From Mobula hypostoma (Eukaryota): a stretch of 64,000 nucleotides of DNA. The position numbers and the translations under genes were made by a program. Below the pieces are notes generated by a model. That model was not told where the DNA came from. It saw only the letters and a program-made list of their open reading frames with translations, and ran no database searches. The stretch lies in NCBI RefSeq assembly GCF_963921235.1, contig NW_026948140.1:620001-684000 (forward strand), given 5' to 3'. Positions 1 to 19,875 of the stretch are shown here, in pieces. Position 1 is the first letter of the stretch. Every line of letters starts with the position of its first letter.

Positions 1-263
1 TCCCACTGCGGGAACTCCCTCTCGTGGACGGTGGCGGAACTCCCACTGCGCGTGTCTGCGCTGGGAGGACTAACTAGCTCCAGCGCCCTCTCGTGGACGG
101 TGCCGGAACTCCCACTGCGGGAACTCCCTCTCGTGGACGGTGCCGGAACTCCCACTGCACGTGCTGTTCTCAGGACCTGTTGGTCTGAGACAGTCCCGCA
201 GCACAATTACCGGACTCAAGTTCGTTTTACTCGTCGCCGATGGACGGGGTGCAGCCTGAGCGG
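1..263 (-). mobile_element. PLE copy 0, 5' (ORF1-repeat) end only; continues beyond the window edge
   Basis: Matches the ORF1 repeat region of the other copies (gtggacggtgccggaactcccact; ggtctgagacagtcccgcagcaca). It stops about 135 bp short of where the other copies end and abuts ttaggggttagg at 264. Confidence 0.85.
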
Positions 264-1456
264 TTAGGGGTTAGGATGCGAGTATGCGGGCAGTAGGCAA
301 AATATCCCTCTAGTGTTTGTGGATCTCGTACTGGAGATGCAGTATCACTTTACCCTGCCACTTTGTTTTTTGCCCACGTCATTATCATCTCGGTCCCCAA
401 CTTTCCTTTACTGGGATCTTCCTCCTCTTCAACCTCCATTCTGGAATTTAAGTTACAATAGTGGAGTTATTGTCTATGGATAGTGTTTTGTATTTTGGGT
501 CTCCTTTATAGGGACTGTGTGCTGTGATCTGGGGGTTGTGCGGTAGCTAATTGAGGGGTGTTGTGGGGAGGGACATGCCCGGGGGTAGAGTTAGGTAATG
601 GGGGTTGAGGATTCACGGCGAAGGGAGGTGGGGTGGGGTGGCAATTGGCATTGCGGGGATGGGTGTGTCCCCTGCAGTAGCCGGGAGGGCTGAAATGGGA
701 GCCTAGCTACTGTTGATATTGGGCGAGTTTGGCCCCTTGATGGGGTAAGGGCTTGGGTTTATGGGGGTGTGTAGCAGGGTTGGAGATATTAGGTTTAGGG
801 GTAGGGTAATGCACTGTTATATAAGCCCTTTAGTGTGGTGTGGTTTGGGTTCTTTGGGGTGCTGTCCGGTTTAGTTGGGTTGCGCGATCCCTTGGAAATT
901 AGGGTTATGGTTTAGTTGGGGTGTGTGGTCCTCCGGATGTTAGGATTAGGTTGAGGGGGTTAGGGTTGAGGGGGGCCCGCTGGGCGGCGGGAGGTATAAC
1001 TGGTGATGTGGGGTGAGTTTGCCCCTCTGGCGAGAAGAGGTTTTGTGTTTATGGGGTGTGAAGATGTTAGGTTTCAGGGCAGGGTCATGTGCTGGGGATG
1101 TATTCTTCCACATAGGGGAAGCTGGGAAGTTGGGGCAAGTGCTGTGTCTGGATTAAACCGGTCGTTACGCGTCTGTTCTTCCTAGTGGTTAACTCCTGTA
1201 GCGTTCTAATTTCTAGTTTTACTCCTCTCTACTTGGGGAATTAGGTTCCGTTCTGGGGCCCAGTTGTTAGGCTCTATTTCCAAAGTAAGACGAACCTTTC
1301 CTATTTAATGGTCCCCTGTCTTAATTTGTTTCAGGGTGGGTGACTGAAGGGGATCTTCCCCTTGTTCCCTACTCTAATTTTCTCAATTTTTAAAAAAATT
1401 ACGGGGTGTAGTGTTGGCCCTTCGGTGAGTACATTTTATGTTGCTGGCCTGGTTTT

Positions 1457-3650
1457 TTAGGCCTCGTTTAGGCCGTTTGGGGAATGCGTCTGTCGTCTTT
1501 CAATCCATCTCCTCTCTGCTCTTTTTCTTTGGAGGTTTGACCAGTTTATGTTGGTTTCCAGGCCCAGGATTGCTAAGGAGTACATTCCATGCTCCAGGAA
1601 GTGCCTACTAACTGGTTTGTTTTGGTTTCCTCCTGTGATATTACTGAGGTGTCCTGTGAGTCTTGTTCTCAGGCTGTTGCCTGTCTCCCCTATGTATATG
1701 ATATGGCATTGTTTACACTGGATTGCATATACTACATTCTTTTGTTCGCAAGTTATCCTCTGCTCTATCTCAGCCCACTTCCCTGTAGCTCTGTTGCGTA
1801 TGCTTTTTGAAATTCTGATGTATATGCACGCCCTGCAGTTTCCCACCTCGCAGTTTGGCACTGTTCGTACTTTGGTACTGCTTGGTATGCCTTTTAAGTA
1901 TCTACGCCTTTTGAAGGCTGAAACTATGGTGTATTGTCCCAGTGTCCCCCCCCTTCCTCCTTTAGATTTTCAAAGTGTGTTTTGACTGTCTTGTGGATAT
2001 TCACTGCCATCCCACTGTCTCCTGTTATCAAGGGTAGTTTCTGTGTTGTGTTGTCCCGTGGTCGGGGATTTGTGATACTTTTTAAAAAGTCAGATTTGAT
2101 GTGTCTAAGTCTCCGTCTGCTGTAGCCCCTGTTTCTAAGTGCAGAGAAGAGGATAAGAGTGGCTTGGTGGAAGTCCTCTGCCCTGGTGCAAATGCGGTGA
2201 AACCGGGTCAGCTGTTCTTTGACAATGCCTCTAAAGGTGCGTTTAGGATAGTGGCTCCCTGTGTGTAGGAGGGTGTGCCTGTCTGTGGTTTTAAAGAATA
2301 CTTTGGTGGCTAGTTTCTGGCTGCCATTCTGGTGCTTGTTTAAATACCGTAGTGTCCAGGAATCAATTTTCTCCCTATCTGTTGCTGCCTTAACCTTGAT
2401 GGATGGATGGTGAGTGTTTAGGATTTGAATAAATTCCTCTAATTCTACCTCCGAGTGTGTCCACACTCCCCAGATATCATCCAGCTATCTATAGAGACAC
2501 ATGGGTTTCTTGGGGCACTTTGGATAAATAGTTTCCTCCCATTTTGCCATGTATATATTGGCAGAGGCTGGAGCAAGCTTCTTTCCCATCGCTGTGCCCT
2601 TGACTTGTAAGTAGAATTCATTATTGAATTCAAAGTCATTTTTAGTTAGACTGAGGTGAAGGAGTTCTATCAAGGCCTCTTCTGGTCTCTCTAGCTGAGG
2701 GTTCTCCCGAAGGATATCCCTCACTGCCTCTATACCCCTGTCCGTTTCTATATTGGTGTACAGGCTTTCAATGTCCATGGTGAAGAGTATGGCCTCAGGG
2801 GGCACTGACATGGAATTGACTATCCCGACAAAGTGGTACGTATCCTTGATGTAGCTGGAGTGTTTCTGCGATAGTGGGTTAAGGAAGGCATGAATGTATT
2901 CTGCTATCCTGTATGACTCACTGCCGCAGTCCGACACGATGGGCCTGCCGGGTGGTATTTCTCCCGGAACAGTCCATGAGTCTGGGTTCTTGTGTATTTT
3001 GGGGAGGATATAGAACTTGCTTGCTCGTGCCTGTATCCCTGTCAGGTACTCCACCTGCTTCTTCCCGAGGTATCTAGTCCTTTCTAGTTCTTGCAGAATG
3101 TTCCTGATTTCTGTGTGTGTTTCCCAGTATATGGGTTCCTTTAGTTTAGTGTAGTGCTCCGTGTTGTTTAATTGCCTGTGTGCCTCAAATAGATATTGCT
3201 ATTTGTCCATGATCACTATGCTGCTGGTTTGATAACAATGTCCATATTTTCCCTCAACTCCTTCAGGGTTGCTCTCTCCTTCCTAGTTAGATTGGGTTTA
3301 TCCTGTACCTCTCTCTCCCTCTCCATTATCTCATCCAGTGTGCTCTCAAATTGTAGGACTGCTTCTGACCTGTACCTCCTCTTGGGCATCCAGTCTGAGG
3401 GTGGGGTGAAAGGGGTCTTTCTACGTTCTGTCTCCCCAAAAAAGTCAACCAGTACCACTCTCCTGTAGAACTTATCCATGTCCCCCTCAATCTGCTCCTT
3501 ATGCAGCTTTGCAGTCGGTACAAAAGTGAGGCCCCTGTTCAGAACCTTGTGCTGGGTTTCTGTAGGGATGAATGTATGGGAGAGGTTCACGACGGTCTCT
3601 CCCAGTCGTGGACCCTGCCTCTCTCGGCTTTGTCTCCACTCTAGTTTAAA
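1457..3650 (-). pseudogene. PLE ORF2: reverse transcriptase + GIY-YIG endonuclease (disrupted)
   Basis: PLE RT motifs VVNLS..GLTFVPT, FYILPKIHK, PGRPIVS, FTMDIESLYTNI, QVKGTAMG, R*LDDIWG. Linker CEVGNCRAC. GIY-YIG motifs NVVYAIQCKQC-YIGET-RLTGH and GLNE. In-frame TAG at 2485-2487 plus several frameshifts. Confidence 0.93.
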
Positions 3651-4805
3651 GACTGCATCCACCTCTTGACTATGGTCAGGGCTGTGTTCTCTGTCCAATT
3701 GATGTGGTCTGTGTCTGCCTTAAACTGCCTCGCCGGGATTGCAGGAATATAATTCTTAGTTTTAATAACCTTGTCTAGTTGGCCCAGGGTTGCTTGTTCT
3801 GCCTCTGTCAAACAGTGGCTAAAGTTCAGCTCTGGGAAATTTTATATGGGCCATTCTTAATAGTCGCTGAAGCTGTTTAGTCGCTGTTGCTGGTTGATGT
3901 GACCTATTGTTTATTCCAAAGGAAAGGATAGCCTTCTTAGTTTCCAGTTGTGGTTCTAGCTTTGTCAGGATAGCAGTGGCATGGGTGAATTTGGCTCACG
4001 GAAAGCTGTCCAATTGAACATCCTTATTAGGGAATCTTTTGATCCTGGAAATGTTAGAGTCCCCTATAATTAGTATAGGTTTAAGGGGCCTTAGTTCCCA
4101 AGTTACATTTTTCTGTTTAGAGTGAGGATGCCTGGTTATTTGACCCTCCTGGTTGCTGCAAATAGGGGTTACCTGTCATCTTGTTTGTCCCATGCCCTCC
4201 GAATCTTGGGCTGTGTGGTTCCCTGGAGTGGAAGACTTGCTCGGTCCTCGTGTACTGGCTCCCCTTGTGTGTGTGCCCATCTGCACTGGTGTGGGGTGGG
4301 GTGCTGATTCCTCAGAGTCTTGGGTCGGGGAGGCCATGGGAGCAGCGGGCTGGGGCTCCCCTGCTCCTAGGTTGGATTGCGGCTTCTCCGAGGGGCTCAC
4401 CTGGCGTCTTCTCTGTTCCTGTGGCTGGGGCACTGGGGCCATATCGGCGTCGAGTGGGTTAACTAGTTCCAGCGCCCTCCCGTGGACAGTGCCGGAACTC
4501 CCACTGTAAGTGTCGGCGCCGGGAGGACTAACTACCTCCACCGCCCTCCTGTGGACGGTGCCCGAACTCCCACTGCACGTATTGTTCTCGGGACCCGTTG
4601 GTCTGAGACAGTCCCGCAGCACAAATATCGGACTCAAGTTCGTTTTACTCGTCGCCGACGGACGGGGTGCAGCCTGAGCCGTCTTTTTCCGGGGCTCGGG
4701 TGTGATACGGGTCCGGTCACGGCTGACACATAAGCCGTCTCTGGAGGTGGAGTGTCTGTTCCCCTCTCCCCCTTGGGATGCGGTTTCCATTGTCCGTGGG
4801 GTCAT
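3641..4805 (-). pseudogene. PLE ORF1 copy 1: low-complexity N-terminus + SGNH/GDSL esterase-like domain (disrupted)
   Basis: Colinear with the better-preserved ORF1 at 14294-15542. ATG at 4805, premature stop at 4176, terminal TAG at 3641-3643. Confidence 0.8.
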
Positions 4806-5573
4806 TGTGACCGCATTAGGGTTAGGGTTGGGATGCGAGTATGCGGGTAGTGGGCAAAATATCCCTCTAGTGTTTTGTGGAGCTCGTACTGGATATGCAG
4901 TATCACTTTACCCTGCCACTTTGTGTTTGGCCCACGTCATCATCATCTGGGTCCCCAACTTTCCTTTACTGGGATCTTCCTCCTTTTCAACCTCCATTCT
5001 GTTACAATAGTGGAGTTATTGCCTATGGATAGTGTTTTGGATTTGTGGTCTTTTTTATAGGGACTGTGTGCTGTGAACTGGGGGTTGTGCGGTAGCTAAT
5101 TGAGGGGTGTTGTGGGGAGGAACATGCCCGGGGGTAGAGTTAGGTAATGGGGGTTGAGGATTCACGGCGAAGGGAGGTGGGGTGGGGTGGCAATTGGCAT
5201 TGCTGGGGTGGGGGTGTCCCCTGCAGTAGGGGGGAGGGCTGAAATAGGAGCCCAGCTGAGCTGGAGAGTTTCTGCGATAGTGGGTTAAGGATGGCATCCA
5301 TGTACTCTGCTATCCTGTATGACTCACTGCTGCAGTCCGACACGATGGGCCAGCCGGGTGGTATTTCTCCCGGAACGGTCCGTGAGTCTGGGCTCTTGTG
5401 TAGTTTGGGGAGGGTATAGAACTTTCTTACTCGTGGCCGTATCCTTGTCAGGTACTCCACTTGCTTCTTCCCGAGGTATCTAGTCCTCTCTAGTTCTCGC
5501 AAAATTTCCTAATCTGTGTGTGTGTTTCCCAGTATATAGGTTCCCTTAGTTTAATGTAGTGTTACGTGTTGTT

Positions 5574-5591
5574 TAATTGTCTGTGTGCCTC
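5574..5591 (+). repeat. L1 target-site duplication, left copy (right copy 9066-9083)
   Basis: taattgtctgtgtgcctc vs taattgtctgcgtgcctc, 17/18 identical. The sequence is single-copy in the uninterrupted paralogue at ~16325-16342. Confidence 0.9.
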
Positions 5592-8500
5592 TCCTATTCA
5601 AGAATTGATCATTTCTTTATTGATTCTCGTCTTATTTCTTCAGTGATTAAATGTGATTATGACTCTATAACCATTTCGGATCATGCTCCACTTAAGCTTT
5701 CTATTAAAATTCTGGTCAATATACAAAATAATAGACAATGGCATTTTAAATTAACTTTATGAATGAACAGATTGATTTTTTTTTACAATTAATTATACGG
5801 AGGATATTTCTGTGAACATTCTTTGAGATACTTATAGTGGCTTATATAGTGGCTTAAAAAGCTTATATTCGTGGTCAGATTATCTCGTATTCTGCTGCTT
5901 TGAGGAAGAAGTTGAAGCAGGAGGAGTTGGTAATTGTGGACAAGATTAAGGAAATTGATAAGAAATATGTTATAGCTCCTTCTGAGGGGTTATATAAACA
6001 AAGAACTGAACTTCAAATGGAACACAGTTTATTACTTTCGTCCTCGATCGTCCAATTAAAGAAAACAAGAAGTGAATTTTATGTACACAGTGACGAAATT
6101 GGTAAACTGTTGGCTAATCAACTGAAGTCTAATTATGCTAAATCTCAAATTAATCAGATTTATAATCAAAATGACCGACTGATACTTGATCATGTGGGGA
6201 TTAATCAAACCTTCTGTGATTTTTATTCTTCTTTATATCAATCAGAGTCTCCTCAAGATTCTAAATATATGAATGATTTTTTAGATAATCTAGATTTCCC
6301 TGAGATTTCGCAGGATATGTCTTCTATGTTAGATACTCCCATTACCACGGATGAGATTAAGAATGTTATTTTCTCTATGAATTTGGGGAAAGCTCCTGGC
6401 CCTGATGGGTTTACCGTAGAATTTTATAAATGTTTCGCTCCTTCATTAATCCCTTGGTTCTGTAGGGTTTTTGAGGCTTCATTAAAACTTGGTAAACTTC
6501 CTGAATATTTCAATAGAGCGTCAATTTCTTTAATAGTAAAGAAGGATAAAGATCCTGCTCAATGTGCATCTTATAGACCAATATCTTTATTAAATGTTGA
6601 TTCTACAGTTTTTTCTAAGTTATTAGCAAATAGGTTAGAAAAAGTACTTCCTTCTATTATTTCGGAAGACCAAACGGGTTTTATTAAAGGTCGTTACTCT
6701 TTTTATAATATTCGCACACTGTTAAATATTGTTTATACTCCCTCACAAAATGTTTCTGAGTGTGTTATCTCTTTAGATGCTGAGAAAGCTTTCGATAGAG
6801 TAGAATGGCCTTATTTATTAAGGTGCTTGAAATGTTTAATTTTAGTTCGAAATTTATATCCTGGATTAAACTGTTATATCATTCTCCTGTGGCCTCGGTC
6901 CGTACTAACTCTTTAAGTTCACCTTTTTTCCCTCTTTTTCGAGGTACTCGACAAGGTTGTCTTCTTAGTCCTCTATTATTTGATATTGCATTAGAACCTC
7001 TTGCAATTGCCATTCGAGAATCTCCAAATATTACTGGGATAACTCGGGGCTTAAAGTCCCATAAAATATCACTCTATGCTGATGACTTACTTCTATATAT
7101 TTCTAACCCCCAAAAATCCATCCCGGCTGTTTTAGAGTTATTAGCACAATTTAGTTTCTTTTCTGGTTATAAATTAAATCTTAGTAAGAGTGAACTTTTC
7201 CCGATTAATAAACAACTTCCCTTATATAATAACTTTCCATTTAAATTGACTAATAATTATTTTTCATATCTTGGGATTAAAATTACTTGTAAATACAAAG
7301 ATTTATTTAAGATTAACTGTTTACCATTAATAGACCATATTATTCAACTTTCATCTAAATGGTTTCCTTTATATTTAACTTTGATTGGTCGTATTAATGC
7401 AGTTAAGATGTTTTTTTTGCCAAAATTTTTATATATATTTCAAGCATTACCAATCTTTGTTCCAAAATCTTTTTTTGACAAAGTTGACTCTAAAATTTCT
7501 TCATTTATTTGGCAAAATAAAAACCCGAGACTGGGTAAAATACATTTACAGAAAGCTAAGAGAGATGGAGGCTTAGCATTACCTAATTTTAGATTTTATT
7601 ATTGGGCAATTAATATTCGACATATGAAATTCTGGTTACTTGACCAGGATGTTCAGGGTTATACACTTGGCTCTATTTTAGGTTCCTCTCTTCCTTTTGA
7701 TTTGAAACGCCTTAAACAGGTGTCTAACCCGATAGTTAAATATACCTTACGTATTTGGTTTCAATTCAGAAAGTTTTTTGATCTTAATCAATTTGGGTTA
7801 GCGATTCCTATTTTAGGTAACATTTTTTCCTCCCTCTTTTACGGATCGTGCTTTTCAAATTTGGAAGACTAAGGGTATTTCACGGTTTTTGGATTTATTT
7901 TTAGATGGTTCCCTTATGTCTTTTGAACAATTATCTAATAAATATAACTTATCAAGAATACATTTTTTTAGATATCTACAAGTTAGAAATTTCCTAAGTA
8001 CTATACTTTCTTCCTTTCCAATGCTTCCTCCTACATACATTTTAGATACTATAATTAACCTTAATCCATGTCAGAAAGGTGCATCGGCTATGATTTATAG
8101 TATTATTATGAAATTTAGGAAAGCTCCATTTGATAAGATTAGGGTAGATTGGGAACAGGAATTGGGGTTTATCATTTCTGTGGATGACTGGGGGCAGATT
8201 TTACAATTAGTCAATACTTCCTCTATCTGTGCTAAACATTCCCTAATTCAGTTTAAAGTTGTTCATAGAGCACATATGTCCAAAGATAAATTAGCGCGCT
8301 TTTATTCTCATATTAATCCTTTTTGTGATAGATGTCCGGGCCAGATAGCCTCTTTAACTCATGTGTTTTGGTCTTGCCCTACTCTGGAAACTTTTTGGAG
8401 AGACATTTTTAATATTATCTCCAAGGTATTGAATATAGATATCTCTCCTCACCCTATTACTGTTATCTTTGGACTACCTAAAATTTCCAGTAATCTTTCC

Positions 8501-8716
8501 CCTTCAGCCCATAGAATGATTGCATTTCTTACTTTAATGGCGAAAAGATGTATCTTACAACATTGGAAAGAGCTTAATGCTCCATCTACCTTTTTTTGGT
8601 TTTCTCAGACGATATTATGCTTGAATTTGGAGAAAATTAGAAGCAATCTTTATGACTCCTCATTTAAATTTGAACAGACCTGGAGATCTTTTATTCAATA
8701 TTTTCATTTAATGTAA
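5592..8716 (+). pseudogene. L1 ORF2 (APE endonuclease C-terminus, RT, C-terminal Cys/His motif), frameshifted
   Basis: SRIDHFF..SDHAPL (APE); KAPGPDGF, YRPISLLN, DQTGFIKGR, SLDAEKAFDRV, GTRQGCLLSP, LYADD (RT); CDRC..THVFWSC. Split over at least four frames. Confidence 0.93.
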
Positions 8717-9065
8717 TATATACCCTTCTTGTTTTTTTTACTGTTTTTTATGGAGGTCGGGATTGAGGACGTGATTTTAAGTTTTTTAACTCTGTTTGGT
8801 TTCAAGTTAGCCCATTGCTTTGCTTTGCTTTTAGTTAGTTGCACGGTGGGTTTTTTTTGGGGTTTTTGTTTTCCTTTTCTCTATTGATATATATATAAAA
8901 ATTCGTATACTATTATGTTACCTTGGTATGTTATGTTTAAATTACATTGTAGTATTTTTTTTGTATTAATATCTTCTGTAATTTTATTATATTCTAACAG
9001 TGTATTAGTGCCTATATGGCTTACCTTTTTGTATACTTATTCAATAAAAAGATTTAAAAAGAAAG
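5592..9065 (+). mobile_element. 5'-truncated L1-clade LINE
   Basis: AT-rich block with ORF2 motifs, a T-rich 3' UTR, AATAAA at 9043-9048, a short A-rich tail and flanking target-site duplication. Confidence 0.93.
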
Positions 9066-10669
9066 TAATTGTCTGCGTGCCTCAAATAGGTATTGCTGTT
9101 TGTCCATGATAACTATGCTGCTCCCGTTATCTGCTAGTTTGATAACAATATCCATATTTTCTCTCAGTTCTTTCAGGGCTGCTCTCTCCTTCCTGGTTAG
9201 ATTGGGTTTATCCTGTGCTTCTCTGTCCCTCTCTATTATCTCATCCATTGTGTTCTCAAATTGCAAGACCGCTTCTGACCTGTACCTCCTCTTGGGCATC
9301 CAGTCTGAGGGAGGGGTGAAAGAAGTCTTCCTACATTCTGACTCCCCCAAAAAGTCGACCAGTACCAATCTCCTATAGAACTTATCCATGTCCCCCTCCA
9401 TCTGCTCCTTATGGAGCTTTGCAGTCGGTACAAAAGTGAGGCCCCTGTTCGGAACATTGTGCTGGGTTTCTGTAGGGATGAATGTACGAGAGAGGTTCAC
9501 GATGGTCTCTCCCAGTCGTGGACCCTGCCTCTCTCGGCTTTGTCTCCACTCTAGTTTAAAGACTGCATCCACCTCTTTACTATGGTCAGGGCTGTGTTCT
9601 CTGTCCAATGGATGTGGTCTGTGTCTACCTTAAACTGCCTCGCCGGGAATGCAGGGATATAATTCTTAGTTCTAATAACCTCGTTCAGTTGGCCCAGGGT
9701 TGCTTGTTCTGCCTCTGTCAAACAGTGGCTAAAGTTCAGCTCTGGGAAATTTTATATGGGCCATTCTTAATAATTGCTGAAGCTGTTTATTCGCTATTGC
9801 TAGTTGATGTGACCTATTGTTTATTCCAAAGGAAAGGATAAACTTCTTAGTTTCCAGTTGTGGTTCTAACTTTGTCAGGATAGCAGGGGCATGGGTGAAT
9901 TTGGCTCACTGAAAGCTGTCCAATTGAACATCCTCATTAGGGCATCTTTTGATCCTGGAAATGTTAGAGTCACCTATAATTAGTATGGGTTTAAGGGTCC
10001 TTAGTTTCCAAGTTACATTTTTCTGTTTAGAGTGAGGATGCCTGGTTATTTGATCCTCCTGGTTGCTGCAAATAGGGGTTACCTGTCGTTTGTCCCATGT
10101 CCTCCGACTCTCGGGCTGTGTGGTTCCCTGGGGTGGAAGACTTGCTCGGTCCTCGTGTACTGGCTGCCCTTGTCTGTGTGCCCATCCGCATTGGTGTGGG
10201 TTGGGGTGCTGATTCCTCGGAGTCTTGGGTCGGGGAGGCCATGGGGGCGGCGGGCTGAGGCTCCCCTGCTCCTAGGTTGGACTGTGTCTTCTCCGAGGGG
10301 CTCATGGGTGGGGAGGGGCTCACCTGGCGCCTTCTCTGTTCCTCTGCCTGGGGCAGTGGGGCCACATCGGCGTTGAGTGGGGTAACTACTTCCAGCGCCC
10401 TCTCGTTGACGGTGCCGGAACTCCCACTACACGTGTTGTTCTCAGGACCTGTTGGTCTGAGACAGTCCCGCAGCACAATTACCGGACTCAAGTTCGCTTT
10501 ACTCGTCGCCGACGGACGGGGTGCAGCCTAAGCGGTCTTTTTCCGGGGCTCGGGTGTGATACGGGTCCGGTCACGGCTGACACAGAAGCCGTCTCTGGAG
10601 GTGGAGTGTCTGTTCCCCTCTCCCCCTTGGGATGCGGTTTCCATTGTCCGTGGGGTCATTGTGACCGCA

Positions 10670-11307
10670 TTAGGGTTAGGGTTAGGATGCGAGTATGCGG
10701 GTAGTGGGCAAAATATCCCTCTGGTGTTTGTGGATCTCGTACTGGAGATGCAGTATCACTCTACCCTGCCACTTTGTGTTTGGCCCACGTCATCATCATC
10801 TCGGTCCCCAACTTTCCTTTACTGGCATCTTCCTCCCCTTCAAACTCCATTCTGGAGTTTAAGTTACAATAGTGGAGATATTGGCTATGGATAGTGTTTT
10901 GGATTTGGGGGCTTTTTAATAGGGACTGTGTGCTGTGATCTGCGGGTTGTGCGGTAGCTAATTGAGGGGTGTTGTGGGGAGGGACATGCCCTGGAGTAGA
11001 GTTAGGTAATGGGGGTTGAGGATTCACGGCGAAGGGAGGTGGGGTGGGGTGGCAATTGGCATTGCAGGGGTGGGGGTGTGCCTTGCAGTAGTGGGGAGGG
11101 CTAAAATAGGAGCCTAGTTGCTGGTGATATTGGGCAAATTTGGCCCCTTGATGGGGTAATGGTTTGGGTTTTGGGGTGTGTAGCAGGGTTGGAGATGTTA
11201 GGTTTAGGGGTAGGGTAAAGGACTGTTATATAAGCCCTTTAGTGTGGTGTGGTTTGGGTTATTTGGGGTGCTGTCCAGTTTAGTTGGGGTGCGCGGTCCA
11301 TTGGAAA
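10670..11307 (-). mobile_element. PLE 3'-terminal fragment (pseudo-LTR-like), ~640 bp
   Basis: Colinear with 264-898 and ends at the UTR-internal ggaaa|ttaggg site. Confidence 0.8.
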
Positions 11308-11341
11308 TTAGGGTTAGGGTTAGGGTCGGGCTGGGGTTAGG
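11308..11341 (+). repeat. Telomere-like tract (TTAGGG)3 plus variants at a unit boundary (others at 264, 4816, 10670, 15553, 18061, 18688, 19551)
   Basis: ttagggttagggttagggtcgggctggggttagg read directly. Confidence 0.85.
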
Positions 11342-12092
11342 ATGCGAGTATGCGGGCAGTGGGAATTTGGCCCCTTACTGGGGTAAAGGTTTGGGTTTAT
11401 GGGGGTGTGTAGCAGGGTTGGAGGTGTTAGGTTTAGTGGTAGGGCAAAGGATTATTATATAAGCCCTTTAGTGTGGTGTGGTTTAGGTTATTTGGGATGC
11501 TGTCCAGTTCAGTTGGGGTGCGCGGTCCCTTGGAAATTAGGGTGAGGGTTTAGTTGGGGTGTGTGGTCCTCCGGATGTTAGGATTAGGTTGTGGGCATAG
11601 GGTTGAGGGGGGCCCGCCGGGCGGCGGGAGGTATAACTGGTGATGTGGGGTGAGTTTGCCCCTCTGGTGAGAAGAGGATCTGTGTTTATGGGGTGTGAAG
11701 ATGTTACATTTCAGGGCATGGTCATGTGCTGGGGATGTATTCTTCCCCATGGGGGAAGCTGGGAAGTTGGGGCAAGTGCTGTGTCTGGATTAAACTGGTC
11801 GTTACGTGTCTGTTCTTCCTAGTGGTTATCTCCTGTAGTGTTATAATTTCTAGTTTTACTCCTCTCTACTTGGGGAATTATGTTCTGTTATGGGGCCTAG
11901 TTGTTAGGCTCTATTTCCAAAGTAAGACGAACCTTTCCTATTTAATGGTCCCCTGTCTTAATTTGTTTCAGGGTGGGTGACTGAAGGGGATCTTCCCCTT
12001 CTTCCCTACTCTAATTTTCTCAATTTTTTTAACATTACGGTTTGCAGGGTTGGTCCTTCGGTGAGTACATTTTATGTTGCTGGCCTGGTTTT

Positions 12093-14303
12093 TTAGGCCT
12101 CGTTTAGGCCGTTAGGGGAATGCCTCTGCAGTCTTTCAATCCATCTCCTCTCTGCTCTTTTTCTTTGGATGTTTGACCAGTTTATGTTGGTTTCCAGGCC
12201 CAGGATTGCTTAGGAGTACATTCCATGCTCCAGGAAGTGCCTACTAACTGGTCTGTTTTGGTTTCTTTTTGTGATATTACTGAGGTGTCCTGTGAGTCTG
12301 GTTCTCAGGCTGTTGCCTGTCTCCCCTATGTATATGATATGGCATTGTTTACACTGGATTGCATATATTACATTCTTTTGTTCGCAAGTTATCCTCTGCT
12401 CTATCTCAGCCCACTTCCCTGTAGCTCTGTTGCGTATGCTTTTTGAAATTCTGATGTATATGCACGCCCTGCAATTTCCCACCTCGCAGTTTGGCGCTGT
12501 TCGTACTTTGGTACTGACTAGTATGTCTTTTATGTTTCTACCCCTTTTGAAGGCTGAAACTATGGTGTATTGTCCCAGTGTCCCCCCCTTCCTCCTTTAG
12601 ATTTTCAAAGTGTGTTTTGACTGTCTTGTGGATATTCACTGCCATCCCACTGTATCCTGTTATCAAGGGTAGTTTCTGTGTTGTGTTGTCCCGTGGTCGG
12701 GGATTTGTGATACTTTTTAAAAAGTCAGATTTGATGTGTCTGAGTCTCCATCTGCTGTAGCCCCTGTGTCTAAGTGCAGAGAAGAGGATAGTAGTGGCTT
12801 GGTGGAAGTCCTCTGCCCTGGTGCAAATGTGATGAAACCGGATCAGCTGTCCTTTGACAATGCCTCCGAAGGTGTGTTTGGGATGGTGGCTCCCGGTGTG
12901 TAGGAGGGTGTGTGTGTGTCTGTGGTTTTAAAGAATCGTTTGGTGGCTAGTTTCTGGCTTCCATTTTCTGGTGCTTGTTTAAATACCGTAGTGTCCAGGA
13001 AGTCAATTTTCTCCCTATTTGTTGTGGCCTTAACCTTAATGGATGGATGATGAGTGTTTAGGATTTGAATAAATTCCTCTAATTCTACCTCTGAGTGTGT
13101 CCACACTCCCCAAATGTCATCCAGCTATCTATAGAGACACATGGGTTTCTTGGGGCACTTTGGATAAACAGTTTCCTCCCATTTTGCCATGTATATATTG
13201 GCAGAGGCTGGAGCAAGCTTCTTTCCCATCGCTGTGCTCTTGACTTGTAAGTAGAATTCATTATTGAATTCAAAGTCATTTTTAGTTAGGCTGAGGTGAA
13301 GGAGTTCTATCAAGGCCTCGTCTGGTCTCTCTAGCTGAGGGTTCTCCCGAAGGATATCCCTCGCTGCCTCTATACCCCTGTCCGTTTCTATATTGGTGTA
13401 CAGGCTTTCAATGCCCATGGTGAAGAGTATGGCCTCAGGGGGCACTGACATGGAATTGACTATCCGGACAAAGTGGTACGTGTCCTTGACATAACTGGAG
13501 TGTTTCTGCGATAGTGGGTTAAGGAAGGCATGAATGTATTCTGCTATCCTGTATGACTCACTGCCGCAGTCTGACACGATGGGCCTGCCGGGTGGTATTT
13601 CTCCTGGAACAGTCCATGAGTCTGGGTTCTTGTGTATTTTGGGGAAAATATAGAACTTTCTTGCTCGTGGCTGTATCTCTGTCAGGTACTCCACCTGCTT
13701 CTTCCCGAGGTATCTAGTCCTTTCTAGTTCTCGCAGAATGTTCCTGATTTCTGTGTGTGTTTCCCAGTATATGGGTTCCTTTAGTTTAGTGTAGTGCTCC
13801 GCATTGTTTAATTGCCTGTGTGCCTCAAATAGATATTGCTGTTTGTCCATGATCACTATGCTGCTCCCTTTATCTGCTGGTTTGATAACAATATCCATAT
13901 TTTCCCTCAACTTCTTCAGGGCTGCTCTGTCCTTCCTAGTTAGATTGGGTTTATCCTGTACCTGTCTCTCCCTCTCCATTATCTCATCCAGTGTGCTCTC
14001 AAATGGCAGGACCGCTTCTGACCTGTACCTCCTCTTGAGCATCCAGTCTGAGGCTGGGGTGAAAGGGGTCTTTCTACGTACTGTCTCCCCAAAAAAGTCA
14101 ACGAGTACCACTCTCCTGTAGAACTTATCCATGTCCCCCTCAATCTGCTCCTTCTGGAGTTTTGCAGTCGGTACAAAAGTGAGGCCCCTGTTCGGAACCT
14201 TGTGCCGGGTTTCTGTGGGGATGAATGTACGAGAGAGGTTCACGACGGTCTCTCCCAGTCGTGGACCCTGCCTCTCTCGGCTTTGTCTCCACTCTAGTTT
14301 AAA
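12093..14303 (-). pseudogene. PLE ORF2 copy 3: RT + GIY-YIG (disrupted)
   Basis: Open from the ORF1 junction to a TAG in the catalytic motif (13125-13127). Further frameshifts follow and there is a stop at 12210. Same motifs as copy 1. Confidence 0.93.
14297..14303 (-). promoter_or_regulatory. Candidate -1 ribosomal frameshift heptamer U_UUA_AAC (also 3644-3650, 9554-9560, 16809-16815)
   Basis: ORF1 frame reads TCT TTA AAC TAG; the -1 frame TTT AAA CTA GAG is the RT frame. Identical in four copies. Confidence 0.75.
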
Positions 14304-15114
14304 GACTGCATCCACCTCTTGACTATGGTCAAGGCTGTATTTTCTCTCCAATGGATGTGGTCTGTGTCTACCTTAAACTGCCTCGCCGGGATTGCAGGGA
14401 TATAATTCTTAGTTTTAATAACCTCATTTAGTTGGCCCAGGGTTGCTTGTTCTGCCTCTGTCAAACAGTGGCTAAAGTTCAGCTCTGGGAAATTTTATAT
14501 GGGTCATTCTTAATAGTTGCTGAAGCTGTTTAGTCGCTGTTGCTGGTTGATGTGACCTATTGTTTATTCCAAAGGAAAGGATAACCTTCTTAGTTTCCAG
14601 TTGTGGTTCTAACTTTGTCAGGATAGCAGTGGGATGGGTGAATTTGGCTCGCGGAAAGCTGTCCAATTGAACATCCTTATTAGGGAATCTTTTGATCCTG
14701 GAAATGTTAGAGTCCCCTATAATTAGTATAGGTTTAAGGGGCCTTAGTTCCCAAGTTACATTTTTCTGTTTAGAGTGAGGATGCCTGGTTATTTGACCCT
14801 CCCGGTTGCTGCAAATAGGGGTTACCTGTCGTCTTGTTTGTCCCATGTCCTCCGACTCTCGGGCTGCGTGGTTCCCTAGGGTGGAAGACTTGCTCGGTCC
14901 ACGTGTACTGGCATCCCTAGTGTGTGTGCCCATCCGCACTGGCGTGGGGTGGGGTGCTGATTCCTCGGAGTCTTGGGTCGGGGAGGCCATGGGAACGGCG
15001 GGCTGGGGCTCCCCTACTCCCAGGTTGGATTGCGTCTTCTCCAAGAGGCTCATGGGTGGGGAGGGGCTCGCCTGGCGTCTTCTCTGTTCCTGTGGCTGGG
15101 GCACTGGGGCTACA

Positions 15115-15322
15115 TCGGCGTCGAGTGGGTTAACTAGTTCCAGCGCCCTCCCGTGGACGGTGCCGGAACTCCCACTGTAAGTGTCGGTGCTGGGAAGACT
15201 AATTAGCTGCTTCGCCCTCTCGTGGACGGTTGCTGAACTCCCACTGCAGGTGTGGGCGCTGGGAGGACTACCTACCTCCAGCGCCCTCCCGTGGACGGTG
15301 CCAGAACTCCCACTACACGTGT
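15115..15322 (-). repeat. 69-bp (23-aa) coding tandem repeat in ORF1, 3 units
   Basis: TCSGSSGTVHGRALEVGSPPSAH / TCSGSSATVHERAKQLISLPSTD / TYSGSSGTVHGRALELVNPLDAD. Boundaries approximate. Confidence 0.85.
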
Positions 15323-15552
15323 TCTCAGGACCTTTTGGTCTGAGACAGTCCCGCAGCACAATTACCGGACTCAAGTTCGTTTTACTCGTCGCCGACGGAC
15401 GGGGTGCAGCTTGAGCGGTCTTTTTCCGGGGCTCGGGTGTGATACGGGTCCGATCACGGTTGACCCAGAAGCCTTCCCTGGAGGTGGAGGGTCTGTTCCC
15501 CTCTCCCCCTTGGGATGCGGTTTCCATTGTCCGTGCGGTCATTGTGGCCGCA

Positions 15553-18060
15553 TTAGGGTGAGGGTTAGCGTTAGGATGCGAGTATGCGGGCAGTGGGCAA
15601 AATATCCCTCCAGTGTTTGTGGATCTCGTACTGGAGATGCAGTATCACTTTACCCTGCCACTCTGTGTTTGGCCCACGTCATCATCATCTCGGTCCCCAA
15701 CTTTCCTTTACTGGGATCTTTCTCCTCTTCAACCTCCAGTCTGGAGTTTAAGATACAATTGTGGAATTATTGCCTATGGTTAATGTTTTGGATTTGGGGC
15801 CTTTTTAATAGGGACTGGGTGCTGTGATCTGGGGTTTGTGCGGTAGCTAATTGAGGGGTGTTGTGGGGAGGGGCATGCCCGGGGGTATAGTTAGGTAATG
15901 GAGGTTGAGGATTCACGGCGAAGGGAGGTGGGGTCGGGTGGCAATTGGCATTTCGGGGGTGGGGGTGTCCCCTGCAGTAGGGGGAGGGCTGAAATAGGAG
16001 CCTAGCTGAGCTGGAGTGTTTCTGCAATAGTGGGTTAAGGATGGCATCCATGTACTCTGCTATCCTGTATGACTCACTGCTGCAGTACGACACGATGGGC
16101 CAGCCGGGTGGTATTTCTCAAGGAACGGTCCGTGAGTCTGGGCTCTTGTGTATTTTGGGGAGGGTATAGAACTTTCTTACTCGTGGCTGTATCCCTGTCA
16201 GGTACTCCACTTGCTTCTTCCCGAGGTATCTAGTCCTCTCTAGTTCTCGCAAAATGTTCCTAATCTGTGTGTGTGTTTCCCAGTATATGGGTTCCCTTCG
16301 TTTAATGTAGTGTTCCGTGTTGTTTAATTGTCTGTGTGCCTCAAATAGGTATTGCTGTTTGTCCATGATAACTATGCTGCTCCGGTTATCTGCTGGTTTG
16401 ATAACAACATCCATATTTTCCCTCAGTTCTTTCAGGGCTGCTCTCTCCTTCCTGGTTAGATTGGGTTTATCCTGTATTTTTCTCTCCTTCTCTATTATCT
16501 CATCCAGTGTGCTCTCAAATTGTAAGACCGCTTCTGACCTGTACCTTCTCTTGGGCATCCAGTCTGAGGGAGGGGTGAAAGGGGTCTTGCTAAATTCTGA
16601 CTCCCCAAAAAAGTCGACCAGTACCAATCTCCAAGAGAATTTATGTCCCCCTCCGTCTGCTCCTTCTGGAGCTTTGCAGTTGGTACAAAAGTGAGGCCCC
16701 TGTTCGGAACCTTGTGCCGGGTTTATGTGGGGATGAATGTACGAGAGAGGTTCACGACGGTCTCTCCCAGTCGTGGACCCTGCCTCTCTCGGCTTTGTCT
16801 CCACTCTAGTTTAAAGACTGCATCCACCTCTTGACTATGGTCAAGGCTGTATTTTCTCTCCAATGGATGTGGTCTGTGTCTGCCTTAAACTGCCTCGCCG
16901 GAATTGCGGGGATATAATTCTTAGTTCTAATAACCTCGTTTAGTTGGCCCAGGGTTGCTTGTTCTGCCTCTGTCAAACAGTGGCTAAAGTTCAGCTCTGG
17001 GAAATTTTATATGGGCCATTCTTAATAGTTGCTGAAGCTGTTTAGTCGCTGTTGCTGGTTGATGTGACCTATTGTTTATTCCAAAGGAAAGGATAACCTT
17101 CTTAGTTTCCAGTTGTGGTTCTAACTTTGTCAGGATAGCAGTAGCATGGGTGAATTTGGCTCCCGGAAAGCTGTCCAATTGAACATCCTTATTAGGGCAT
17201 CTTTTGATCCTGGAAATGTTAGAGTCCCCTATAATTAGTATAGGTTTAAGGGGCCTTAGTTCCCAAGTTACATTTTTCTGTTTTGAGTGAGGATACCTGG
17301 TTATTTGACCCTCCCGGTTGCTGCAAATAGGGGTTACCTGTCGTCTTGTTTGTCCCATGTCCTCCGACTCTCGGGCTGTGTGGTTCCCTGGGGTGGAAGA
17401 CTTGCTCGGTCCTCGTGTACTGGCTCCCCTTGTCTGTGTGCCCATCCGCACTGGTATGGGGTCGGGTGCTGATTCCTCGGAGTCTTGGGTCGGGGAAGCC
17501 ATGGGGGCGGCGGGCGAGGGCTCCCCTGCTCCTAAGTTGTATTGCAGCTTCTCCGAGGGGCTCATGGGTGCGGAGGGGCTCACCTGGCGTCTTCTCTGAT
17601 CCTGTGCCTGGGGCAGTGGGGCCACATCGGCGTCGAGTGGGGTAACTAGCTCCAGCGCCCTCCCGTGGACGGTGCCGGAACTCCCACTGTAAGTGTCGGC
17701 GCTGTGAGGACTAACTAGCTCCCTCGCCCTCTCGTGGACGGTTGCGGAACTCCCACTGCAGCTGTAGCCGCTGGGAGGACTCCAGCGCCCTCCCGTGGAC
17801 GGTGCCTGAACTCCCACTACACGTGTTGTTCTCAGGACCTGTTGGTCTGAGACAGTCCCGCAGCACAATTACCGGACGCAAGTTCGTTTTACTCGTCGCC
17901 GACGGACGGGGTGCAGCTTGAGCGGTCTTTTTCCCTGGGCTTGGGTGTGATACGGGTACCGTCACGTTTGACTCAGAAGCTGTCCCTGGAGGTGGAGGGT
18001 CTGTTCCCCTCTCCCCCTTGGGATGCGGTTTCCATTGTCCGTGGGGTCATTGTGGCCGCA
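15553..18060 (-). mobile_element. PLE copy 4, internally deleted derivative without L1
   Basis: Same deletion junction as copy 2 (cctagctgagctggagtg, ~16001-16018). Esterase-like motifs IGDSN, DSFPGA and FGINN lie in 16984-17868. Confidence 0.88.
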
Positions 18061-18687
18061 TTAGGGTTCGGGTTAGGATGCGAGTATGCGGGCAGTGGGC
18101 AAAATATCCCTCTAGTGTTTGTGGATCTCGTACTGGGGATGCACTGCCACTTTGTTTTTGGCCCACGTCATCATCATCTCGGACCCCAACTTTCCTTTAC
18201 TGGGATCTTCCTCCTCTTCAACCTCCAGTCTGGAGTTTAAATTACAATAGTGGAGTGATTGCCGATGGAGAGTGTTTTGTATTTGGGGCCTTTTTAATAG
18301 GGACTGTATGCTGTGATCTGGGGGTTGTGCGGTAGCTAATTGAGGGGTGTTGTGGGGAGGGACATGCCCGAGGGTATAGTTAGGTAATGGGGGTTGAGGA
18401 TTCACGGCGAAGGGAGGTGGGGTGGGGTGGAAATTGGCATAGCGGGGGTGGGGGTGTGCCCTGCAGTAGGGGGGCAGGCTGAAATAGGAGCCTAGTTGCT
18501 GGTGATATTGGGCGAATTTGGCCCCTTGATGGGGTAAGGGCTTGGGTTTATGGGGGTGTGTAGCAGGGTTGGAAATGTTAGGTTTAGGGGTAGGGTAAAG
18601 GCCTGTTATTTAAGCCCTTTAGTGTGGTGTGGTTTGGGTTATTTGGGGTGCTGTCCGGTTTAGTTGGGGTGCGCGGTCCATTGGAAA
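18061..18687 (-). mobile_element. PLE 3'-terminal fragment (pseudo-LTR-like), ~630 bp
   Basis: Colinear with 10670-11307 and ends at the same ggaaa|tta site. Confidence 0.8.
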
Positions 18688-19550
18688 TTAAGGTTAGGTT
18701 GAGAGTATGCGGGCAGTGAGCAAATCAGCCCTCTTGTGCTATTTGATCTCCTCACTTGAGATTCAATTTCACGCGACCCTGCCACTTTGACCTCGCCCAC
18801 GCCTTCATTAACCAGGTCCAACAATTGCCTTTCTCGGATCTTGCCCCTCCTGGCAAAGGTAATCGGGTTTGTGGGGGTGTGGCTAGGGTTAGTCGGGGTG
18901 TGCCTAGGGATTGTGGGGGTGTGGCATGATCATCGGGATGTACCTAGGGTTTGTGGGGGTGTGTGCCCCCTTGGACTTTAGGATTAGGTTTGAGTGTTGG
19001 GCTGGTGGATGTATATGTGTGACTGGGAGAGATAAGGCTGCAGAGTTTGGAGTGGTGAGGTATGAGGTGCTATGGCGCGTAGGCTTGTGTGGTGAAGCCA
19101 GGTGAATCTGGCCCATGCCTTTCGTTATCGTGGTCTGACACCACTTGGTTCAATGAACCGGGTGTGCACTGGGACACATCATCAGTAATGCATCCTCGGA
19201 TCATGGGGTGTTTCGGGTCTTTAATCATTAGACACCCTCCCCGAGGCGACCCAGCTGGAGTTGATCAAGCTCGGCTTGTGATTTCCCATGTACCAGGATA
19301 ATGAGAGGCATGTAACTATGAGGGTAATGATGTTTTTAAACATCATTACCTGGCATCTGTCTGCCTGGGATTGCATGGGTTAAATTGACAGTGTTTAATG
19401 GGCATTCGGTGTCTCTCCATCTGCGTTTAGTGGTGATTTGCTTCTGTGGACCCAGCTTGTGTTTAACTTTCTGGTTCTCTCTCGCCGTTTGGGCATCTGG
19501 GCATTTTTCTTGGCATTTTGTCTACCGGGAGAATGAAGAGCGTGTCACTG
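18688..19550 (-). mobile_element. 3'-terminal fragment of a second, diverged PLE subfamily (V1)
   Basis: Starts ttaaggttaggttgagagtatgcgggcagt. The first ~130 bp are homologous to the terminal module of the main family (gatctc..gagat, accctgccactttg), then it diverges. Confidence 0.65.
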
Positions 19551-19875
19551 TTAGGTTAGGTTGAGAGTATGCGGGCAGTGGGCAAATCAGCCCTCTTGTG
19601 CTTTTTGATCTCCTCACTTGAGATTCAATTTCACGCAACCCTGCCACTTTGATCTGGCCTACACCTTCATTAACCAGGTCCAACACTTGCCTTTCTTGGA
19701 TCTTGCCCCTCCTGACAAAGGTAATCGGGTTTGTGGGGGTGTGGCCAGGGTTTGTCCGGGTGTGCCTAATGTTTGTGGGGGTATGGCATGATAATCGGGA
19801 TGTCCCGAGGGTTTGTGGGGGTGTGTGCCCCCTTGGACTTTAGGATTAGGTTTGAGTGTTGGGCTGGTGGATGTG
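19551..19875 (-). mobile_element. Shorter second-subfamily fragment (V2), direct repeat of 18688-~19020
   Basis: Colinear with V1 and cut off at atgtgtga|aactcc by the satellite. Confidence 0.7.

Follow-up and report, generated by a model that had tools for sequence, protein, structure and literature searches.

A decayed head-to-tail array of a Penelope-like element with a GIY-YIG nuclease and telomere-repeat 3' ends, from a family probably specialised for chromosome ends, in Mobula hypostoma

The first 18 kb of a 64,000-nucleotide stretch of Mobula hypostoma DNA (the window; positions 620,001 to 684,000 of contig NW_026948140.1, assembly GCF_963921235.1; C46:620001-684000 in our numbering of this genome of 3.48 Gb and 200 contigs) carry four minus-strand copies of a Penelope-like element (PLE). 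We interpret them as the decayed head-to-tail array of a low-copy, Neptune-type, endonuclease (EN)-bearing PLE whose family is probably specialised for telomeric and subtelomeric DNA. This interpretation is carried by the telomere-type repeat found behind every terminal-type 3' end of the family, by the grouping of its copies near chromosome ends and by their prevailing orientation, with the 5' end turned towards the nearest end.

Organization of the array

Self-BLAST, reading of the junctions and a census of the 3' anchor delimited four head-to-tail PLE units on the minus strand between 262 and 18060; the limits of the original prediction, 264 and 18060, are the 3' end of unit A and the 5' end of unit D. 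Stop-to-stop open reading frames (ORFs) of reverse transcriptase (RT), GIY-YIG and esterase type occur on the minus strand only and are confined to the first 18 kb of the window. The units and their parts are the following.

1..261, minus strand: unit E, partial and 5'-truncated; it starts within ORF1 and leaves the window at its start
262..4815, minus strand: unit A, with the 3' two-thirds of ORF1, slippery site, RT, CX4CxxC linker, GIY-YIG and 3' untranslated region (UTR)
4816..10669, minus strand: unit C, internally deleted and interrupted by a foreign long interspersed nuclear element (LINE); repeat at 4816-4830
10670..15552, minus strand: unit B, 4883 nt, the reference unit
15552-14297, minus strand: ORF1 part of unit B
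14372-12600, minus strand: RT of unit B
12596-12210, minus strand: GIY-YIG of unit B
12209-10685, minus strand: 3' UTR of unit B, followed by (CCCTAA)2.5 at 10670-10684
11137..11550, minus strand: 229-nt tandem duplication in the 3' UTR, enclosing a fossil of the element's own 3' end and telomere repeats (11308-11362)
15131..15322 (unit B) and 17643-17818 (unit D), minus strand: 69-nt (23-codon) tandem repeats in ORF1, varying in number among copies
15553..18060, minus strand: unit D, internally deleted; repeat at 15553-15573
3650-3644 (A), 9560-9554 (C), 14303-14297 (B) and 16815-16809 (D), minus strand: slippery sites TTTAAAC
18061..18706, minus strand: unit F, 5'-truncated, the last ~650 nt of a 3' UTR; repeat at 18061-18075

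The order of the parts is ORF1 with its SGNH esterase, a U_UUA_AAC slippery site, the RT, the CX4CxxC linker, GIY-YIG, a 1.5-kb 3' UTR and (CCCTAA)2-3. This is the order that had been proposed, here placed on the minus strand, with GIY-YIG verified by Pfam and the esterase motifs, slippery sites and unit-end repeats verified as well. RT-EN is carried by A and B only, a correction to the original prediction; C and D have a 2377-bp internal deletion, and all four units are 5'-truncated. Unit A is 93.9% identical to B, with its GIY-YIG at 1457-1969 and its telomere-type repeat at 262-273. In unit E, 17-264 matches B 15146-15419 at 81% by self-BLAST, and its junction reads ...CATCCTAACCCCTAACC and then B-equivalent position 134.

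The lesions of the units are largely common to several of them. The deletion of C and D is the same (B-equivalent 11118-13494, with the joint of D at 16008/16011 by self-BLAST), and its joint (11117->13495) is present in contigs of a DNA sequencing run too. Contigs over the 3' UTR occur in some runs that may be of RNA; no run on record is listed as RNA, and no conclusion on expression is drawn from them. A break of the esterase frame is common to A, B and D, whose ORF stops there at ...FPRAEL*, a short piece of the esterase being absent by comparison with other copies, and a stop at the Y of YLDD is common to A and B. A, B, C and D begin at the identical base (TGCGGYCACAATG...), and other genomic copies reach ~1.3 kb farther 5'. 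The unit junction CCTAATGCGGYCACAATGACC was found at 16 genomic sites at no more than one mismatch (reversed control, 0), which are confined to C46 (4, those of the window), the left end of C1 (5) and the left end of C18 (7). The restriction of this junction to only two chromosome ends elsewhere, together with the common lesions, indicates that the array grew by duplication at the DNA level. As far as sequence can tell, the window array is made of the descendants of one dead, 5'-truncated copy, multiplied as DNA and exchanged between subtelomeres.

The element in other genomic copies

Copies were sampled with the N-terminal half of the RT as query; 40 matches were scored among 102 candidates, and 20 of these loci were retrieved with their flanks. 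The intact element composed from these other genomic copies would measure about 6.2 kb. Its 5' end reads AGAAGTGACAC... in L027 and L028; in these two loci and in L011 and L014 it stands directly behind ...CATCCTAACC, which belongs to a copy lying upstream. A 5' UTR of ~0.7 kb is followed by ORF1, starting MWRNNCRER... ~0.7 kb from the 5' end and ~595 residues long, with an N-terminal region conserved in the homologues P0122 and P0123, the 23-residue repeats and a C-terminal SGNH esterase. The 3' UTR of ~1.5 kb terminates in ...CGCATCC(TAACCC)n, and the 229-nt duplication with its fossil 3' end was found in the other full copies as well. The two coding parts could have proved unlinked elsewhere in the genome, a doubt attached to the original prediction; instead, most of the 20 loci agree in the offsets at which ORF1 ends and the RT frame opens. 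Over 1.25 kb of the RT region, 22 copies have a median pairwise identity of 94.0% (range 91.7-98.2%).

The 3' ends and their junctions

Every unit of the window ends ...CCCGCATACTCGCATCC followed by 12-21 nt of CCCTAA-type repeat, and the next unit begins directly behind it; TTAGGGx3 at no more than one mismatch occurs twice in the window and in none of 100 shuffles. The census was extended to 23 terminal-type 3' ends, one of which (L011 5714) is probably a misclassified internal duplicate. A telomere-type start, at least TAA(C)C, was present behind ...CATCC in all 23, so that the telomere-repeat 3' ends noticed at the outset are confirmed. Fifteen ends are followed by a copy in the same orientation, which begins at one of 8 different positions (the full-length start; positions 48 and 1015 of the 5' region; B-equivalent 1, 25, 134, 402 and ~4015). 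Two run into a long telomere-like tract, one into five repeats and then satellite, and the last five into unrelated and mutually different flanks. As these five unrelated flanks are still preceded by the repeat, it must be a property of the element end or of its target and not of one locus. The 8 start points and the varied flanks also indicate that many of the junctions are independent events.

Genomic placement and orientation

The 25-nt context of the frameshift site was found at 52 genomic sites at no more than one mismatch (reversed control, 0). Of these, 39 lie on chromosome-scale contigs of known length; 30 of the 39, distributed over 12 different ends, are no farther than 100 kb from the contig end, and in 27 of these 30 near-end sites the 5' end faces the nearest contig end. 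Orientation is uniform at ten ends, the others being the left end of C91 (4 of 6 sites) and the right end of C52 (1 of 2). The remaining 13 sites are on small or unmeasured contigs; the five among them that belong to C46 all turn the 5' end to the right end of that contig. The subtelomeric targeting that had been suspected is in agreement with this map, which shows a strong subtelomeric grouping and a preferred orientation.

The assembly includes true telomere tracts at the left ends of C1, C18 and C21 and at the right end of C12. On C18, terminal (CCCTAA)n with variant repeats extends over ~2.6 kb (to ~2585) and abuts a copy cut to its last ~985 nt; this copy ends ...CATCCTAACCCTAACCCTAA, a window-type unit comes next and further units stand behind it. 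The sole internal full copy retrieved (L013, on C9 at 109.5 Mb) lies inside a long degenerate telomere-like tract.

The left end of C91 is the home of most orientation exceptions. One locus there (L023, C91:66844-74076) has the 69-nt ORF1 repeat expanded to at least ~14 copies, inverted, beside rearranged and partly inverted PLE copies.

RT, nuclease and assignment to the PLEs

GIY-YIG was recognised by Pfam PF01541 in unit A (E 1e-7) and unit B (E 2e-6). The RVT_1 match of the window fragment is weak (E 1.8e-4, below cut-off) and a longer copy elsewhere passes (E 2e-7). The PLE-type N-terminal and DKG motifs (names as in Craig et al. 2021, PMC8557442) were read as VVNLS..L.RGLTFVPT and IKPADKGSSIVIMD, and the CCHH zinc finger of the nuclease as ..VVYAIQCKQCHIIYIGET..H..H, with two Cys between GIY and YIG. 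Tandem and partial-tandem copies (pseudo-long terminal repeats) and 5' truncation, usual marks of the class, are present too. For the 719-residue open RT-EN stretch of L011, 8000 candidates were scored, of which 2371 are homologues at E<=1e-3; they carry precomputed RVT_1 and GIY-YIG domains, are mostly 45-50% identical, and the few that are named are teleost proteins. The best are P0001 (67% identity) and P0002 (53%). The view of the element as a PLE family of a vertebrate is upheld.

The linker between RT and nuclease reads C-QVGN-C-RA-C (C-X4-C-X2-C). It recurs in P0001 and P0002 and is absent in the teleost homologues P0003, P0052 and P0064 (45-48% identity). An extra CX2-5CxxC motif is given as the mark of Neptune and Nematis by Craig et al. 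(2021, PMC8557442), and by this linker motif the family would be a Neptune-type endonuclease-bearing PLE. The absence of nuclease that distinguishes Athena/Coprina does not apply to it: GIY-YIG is found in A, B and other copies.

A hammerhead ribozyme is usual both in canonical EN-bearing PLEs and in telomeric EN-deficient ones. Rfam matches in the material scanned were sub-threshold chance matches only (DLEU2_6, mir-61 and others). Seven loci scanned for the core motif yielded a single candidate, located in the 5' UTR of L028. It has a GUC site, well-formed stems I and III and a poor stem II, and was rejected as a family feature, its core being kept in none of the four loci compared (L011, L014, L024 and L027).

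The ORF1 esterase

The motifs GDSN, PG, GINN and DTDH were read in the C-terminal part of ORF1. The single sequence stays under the Pfam cut-off (E 0.0012-0.0033), found nothing relevant among PDB sequences and gave one match in a word-based homologue search. An exhaustive search of a representative library gave 1204 relatives at E<=1e-3, most of them with the domain at the C-terminus of proteins of ~400-900 residues; of 26 aligned members, 13 matched Lipase_GDSL_2 (Pfam). Across this alignment no variation is seen at the G, S or N of GDSN, at the P of PG, at the G or N of GxN, or at the D or W of D..HW, and conservation is 90% or higher for the D of GDSN, the G of PG and the H of DxxH. The profile matches PDB 4c1b_A, the esterase domain of zebrafish ZfL2-1 ORF1 (E 2e-5). 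An AlphaFold (AF2) model of the domain (predicted local distance difference test score 92) had 116 fold matches at E<=0.001, with platelet-activating factor (PAF) acetylhydrolase, sialate O-acetylesterase and TesA as top folds and 4c1b_A at rank 31. By its motifs and its modelled fold, the C-terminal domain of ORF1 qualifies as an SGNH/GDSL hydrolase of the retrotransposon ORF1 esterase type, with a predicted activity.

The similarity to the ZfL2-1 ORF1p esterase (PDB 4c1b; Schneider et al. 2013) is at profile level only. The present esterase is C-terminal in the ~595-residue ORF1 and joined to the RT by a putative frameshift, whereas the ZfL2-1 domain belongs to a separate cistron. Esterases of non-LTR elements cluster apart from the other groups in Fig. 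2B of Rodriguez et al. (2017, PMC5408684).

The ORF1/RT overlap

In most of the 20 loci the ORF1 frame runs through GDSN ... GINN ... DTDH to ...WMQSLN*, and the RT frame opens 76 nt upstream of the ORF1 end, in the -1 frame. Immediately 5' of the ORF1 stop, the overlap holds TCT TTA AAC TAG, that is U_UUA_AAC in the X_XXY_YYZ phase. TTTAAAC is in phase at 16 of the 20 loci and in all four window units; the exceptions read TTTAAGC (three) and TTTAACC (one). After a -1 slip the reading would be FKLEWRQSRERQGPRLGETVVNLS..., the beginning of the conserved PLE N-terminal region, and no ATG precedes the conserved N-terminal motifs in the RT frame of this family. At the matching site P0001 reads ..AFKL.. 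and P0002 ..GFKL... In L048 a 670-residue esterase ORF1 and a 770-residue RT-EN, which lies in the -1 frame, have 94 nt in common, and the in-phase heptamer is A_AAU_UUC; T_TTA_AAC is in phase in L052, the ORF1 of L050 ends ...ALN* on GCT TTA AAC TAG, and many esterase ORF1 homologues terminate in ..LN or in ..LN plus one or two residues.

A PLE ORF1 separable by a frameshift with a pseudoknot is mentioned, for a clade that is not specified, in the Fig. 1 legend of Craig et al. (2021, PMC8557442). With this legend, the in-phase heptamer, the lack of an RT start codon and the -1 overlap of the relatives argue for -1 frameshifting from ORF1 into RT-EN, which would yield a gag-pol-like fusion. 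Of the gag-pol-like expression first proposed, the canonical in-phase -1 heptamer in the overlap is observed, and the frameshifting itself is deduced from it.

Proposed mechanism and alternatives

In the mechanism that we propose, U_UUA_AAC would shift some ribosomes -1 into RT, CX4CxxC and GIY-YIG, giving an ORF1-RT-EN fusion. The (CCCUAA)n end of the RNA would pair with the G-rich telomere strand, either as the natural 3' overhang or as a TTAGGG tract nicked by the element nuclease, and the 3' OH of this G-strand would prime reverse transcription. Pairing would set the orientation, the 3' end inward and the 5' end telomere-ward, and new, often 5'-truncated copies would stack against the short repeat tract of resident copies. 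We favour pairing with a natural or nuclease-made 3' OH because the nuclease motifs are intact and some flanks are non-telomeric. In nuclease-less telomeric PLEs, the 3' repeats lie inward and the 5' ends outward, truncated 5' ends are telomere-capped, and reverse-complement RNA repeats pair with the G-overhang (Craig 2021, PMC8557442; Arkhipova 2013). The proposed end-pairing differs from Anolis Poseidon, in which reverse transcription begins internally, at sites non-homologous to the cut DNA (Frangieh et al. 2024).

Several points weigh against the specialised family and its mechanism. The orientation count of 27 in 30 is inflated by local tandem duplication, and the 12 chromosome ends are the safer figure. 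Nine of the 39 sites are non-terminal, two at 0.38-0.47 Mb on C50 and seven deep inside C1, C9, C63 and C71, and a query with the 3'-terminal 413 nt gave 524 candidates (40 scored) that include dispersed fragments deep in chromosomes. Part of the spread between ends is exchange of subtelomere sequence and not retrotransposition. From the junctions, a repeat copied from the RNA cannot be told from one supplied by the target. None of 24 copies (20 loci and 4 window units) has both ORFs open; with this and a maximal RT identity of 98.2%, the mechanism is not observable in action. No hammerhead was found by Rfam at E<=1 in window 1-21000 or in 8 loci, a kind of scan that minimal hammerheads may escape. 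The fold 3' of the heptamer is modest (75 nt; minimum free energy -27.4 kcal/mol; z -2.18; equalled by 5 of 200 shuffles), and the pseudoknot that can be drawn begins too far from the heptamer.

Addition to chromosome ends only, in the manner of Athena/Coprina, would place copies on uncapped G-overhangs with GIY-YIG uninvolved, interstitial copies being former ends or healed breaks. The 5'-truncated copy of C18 capped directly by the terminal telomere tract, the polarity, which is that of EN-deficient PLEs (Craig 2021; Arkhipova 2013), and the position of the internal copy L013 inside a long telomere-like tract all agree with it. We nevertheless regard it as unlikely, since the nuclease motifs are kept across the family and its relatives, which suggests that the nuclease was in use, and several copies have non-telomeric 3' flanks. 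A 14-nt satellite, described below, also lies distal to the copies at many ends, where they are therefore not terminal now.

Alternatively, an ordinary dispersed Neptune-type PLE without telomere preference could have made chance near-end insertions that were then spread by subtelomeric segmental duplication or unequal crossing-over, the CCCTAA being captured flank. Subtelomeres do exchange sequence, the window unit junction occurs at exactly three places, one deletion is common to C and D and one frame break to A, B and D, and unit spacing varies in the arrays. This explanation seems improbable in view of the same polarity at 12 different chromosome ends, of head-to-tail junctions that use 8 different 5' start points, of the repeat retained at five 3' ends with unrelated flanks, and of the fossil 3' end with repeats that every full copy has in its 3' UTR; sense-strand (CCCTAA)3-4, moreover, stands behind the RT in the EN-less relatives L049 and L050 too. 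Finally, separate production of ORF1 and RT-EN (by re-initiation, an internal start or a subgenomic RNA), with TTTAAAC as a coding coincidence of the ...LN* end, would fit the unimpressive fold and the ATG four codons upstream of FKL in the relative P0001, but is very improbable given an RT frame without ATG before its conserved N-terminal motifs in this family, the -1 overlap found again in relatives, with another canonical heptamer in phase (L048, A_AAU_UUC), the ..LN end common among esterase ORF1 homologues and the ORF1/RT frameshift that Craig et al. (2021, Fig. 1 legend) show for PLEs.

Other sequences of the window and of the chromosome ends

Three further features of the window accompany the array.

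~5592..9065, plus strand: unrelated LINE insertion inside unit C; ORFs 5858-8716
18707..19895, minus strand: older fragments of a variant subfamily, with a 3' end ...ACTCTCAACCTAACCT followed by its own 5' end; G-rich 21/40-nt minisatellite
19896..63999, plus strand: 14-nt satellite (CTGAAACTCCTGCC)n, distal to the PLE array

The LINE matches RVT_1 (Pfam; E 1e-15 and 5e-17) and zf-RVT (PF13966, E 2e-6), and its three overlapping ORFs imply frame breaks.

The variant subfamily was found at 18707-19895 and in L011, L013, L024 and L028. Its 3' end, ...GCTGATTTGCCCACTGCCCGCATACTCTCAACCTAACCT, is directly followed by its own 5' end (..CAGTGACACGCTCTTCATTCTCCCGG..), a joint that mirrors the one of the main family, and the G-rich 21/40-nt minisatellite is associated with it.

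The 14-nt satellite, often present as a 28-nt dimer with CTGAATCTCATGCC, covers at least 44 kb of the window; it is still there at C46:684001-684100, and again where scaffold C46 ends on the right. It was also found in L031, L034, L037-L039 and L047. The assembled right ends of C5 and C52 consist of it, as do, in reverse orientation, the right end of C2 and the left end of C91. It has the appearance of a terminal or subtelomeric satellite that lies farther out than the PLE arrays.

At L053 (C18:151-3400) and L040 (C21:1-150), the variant repeats CCCTGGA, CCCGAA and CCCTGA are interspersed with CCCTAA, and in the terminal tract of C18 the same order of variant blocks repeats ~1.4 kb apart. A (TGGA)n / (GGAT)n microsatellite is located at or beside the contig start at the left ends of C9 and C12 (L041 and L045), on C9 immediately behind a short telomere-like stretch.

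Prior knowledge and meaning

The two-ORF, esterase-bearing design had been taken for poorly described, and this does not hold: SGNH esterase ORF1s were reported even for PLEs (Schneider et al. 2013, PMC3905857), esterases of canonical Neptune-like PLEs were described in fish and mollusks (Rodriguez et al. 2017, PMC5408684), a frameshift is in print (PMC8557442), and 1204 relatives of the esterase domain were found here. These features are not new by themselves. In the accessible part of a 2023 survey of telomere-associated retrotransposons, Tx1_Acar is the only vertebrate case and Athena the only PLE (PMC10088271). A nuclease-bearing or vertebrate PLE with telomere-repeat ends was not found in the literature searched, which did not extend to Repbase or Dfam. 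As far as searched, a PLE that unites a retained nuclease with telomere-repeat 3' ends and a polar placement in subtelomeres is an unreported variant.

It is possible, and we put it forward tentatively, that a vertebrate lineage of EN-bearing PLEs copied itself onto or into telomeres through a telomere-complementary RNA 3' end, building sub-telomere DNA at a dozen or more chromosome ends of a cartilaginous fish, and that it is intermediate between Neptune and Coprina/Athena. It would then be a living fossil between intrachromosomal Neptune and the nuclease-less, telomere-attached Coprina/Athena, and the first PLE shown to shape vertebrate chromosome ends. PLE RTs are the closest relatives of telomerase. 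L049 and L050, two short metagenome or whole-genome shotgun contigs, have an RT ORF that stops before the linker and nuclease, with the sense-strand (CCCTAA)3-4 already mentioned; in L049 an esterase ORF1 overlaps the RT frame, which is at -1, and L050 shows an esterase-like block V. As a lead, these possible sisters hint at nuclease-bearing and nuclease-less forms with telomere-type ends in one lineage and, if the proposal is true, at nuclease loss or gain inside it.

The published picture sets nuclease-bearing PLEs, with insertion anywhere, apart from nuclease-less ones, with attachment to chromosome ends (Craig et al. 2021, PMC8557442). This split is blurred by a family that has a nuclease and also telomere-repeat 3' ends and a polar, telomere-directed distribution. 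Such a family suggests that PLEs may be directed to telomeres by base-pairing between their RNA end and the G-strand rather than by loss of the nuclease. The family would be a second kind of vertebrate telomere-associated retroelement, beside Tx1_Acar, and part of the subtelomeric repeat landscape of this genome is retroelement-built.

Comparison with known systems

With the Neptune-clade esterase PLEs of fish and molluscs, Repbase entries to which Schneider et al. (2013, PMC3905857) and Rodriguez et al. (2017, PMC5408684) refer, the present family shares the N-terminal RT motifs, the CX2-5CxxC linker, a GIY-YIG with two Cys, the upstream SGNH ORF and the tandem or partial-tandem copies. Unlike them, it has reverse-complement telomere repeats at its 3' end and is concentrated and oriented at chromosome ends, and no hammerhead was detected by the scans described above.

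Like Athena/Coprina (PMC8557442), it has short reverse-complement telomere repeats at the 3' end, a telomere-ward 5' end, telomere-capped 5'-truncated copies and head-to-tail stacking; an accessory esterase ORF exists in some Athena/Terminon families. It differs from them by the complete GIY-YIG and zinc linker that it keeps, by its vertebrate host, by some non-telomeric flanks and by the lack of an adjacent hammerhead in the same scans.

TRAS/SART of Bombyx and Tx1_Acar of Anolis (PMC10088271) resemble it in bearing a nuclease and in their fixed orientation in or beside telomere repeats, in hosts that keep telomerase-type repeats. They belong to another class, with an apurinic/apyrimidinic endonuclease (APE) and poly(A) or other 3' ends, whereas the RNA 3' end of the present family may itself pair with the G-strand.

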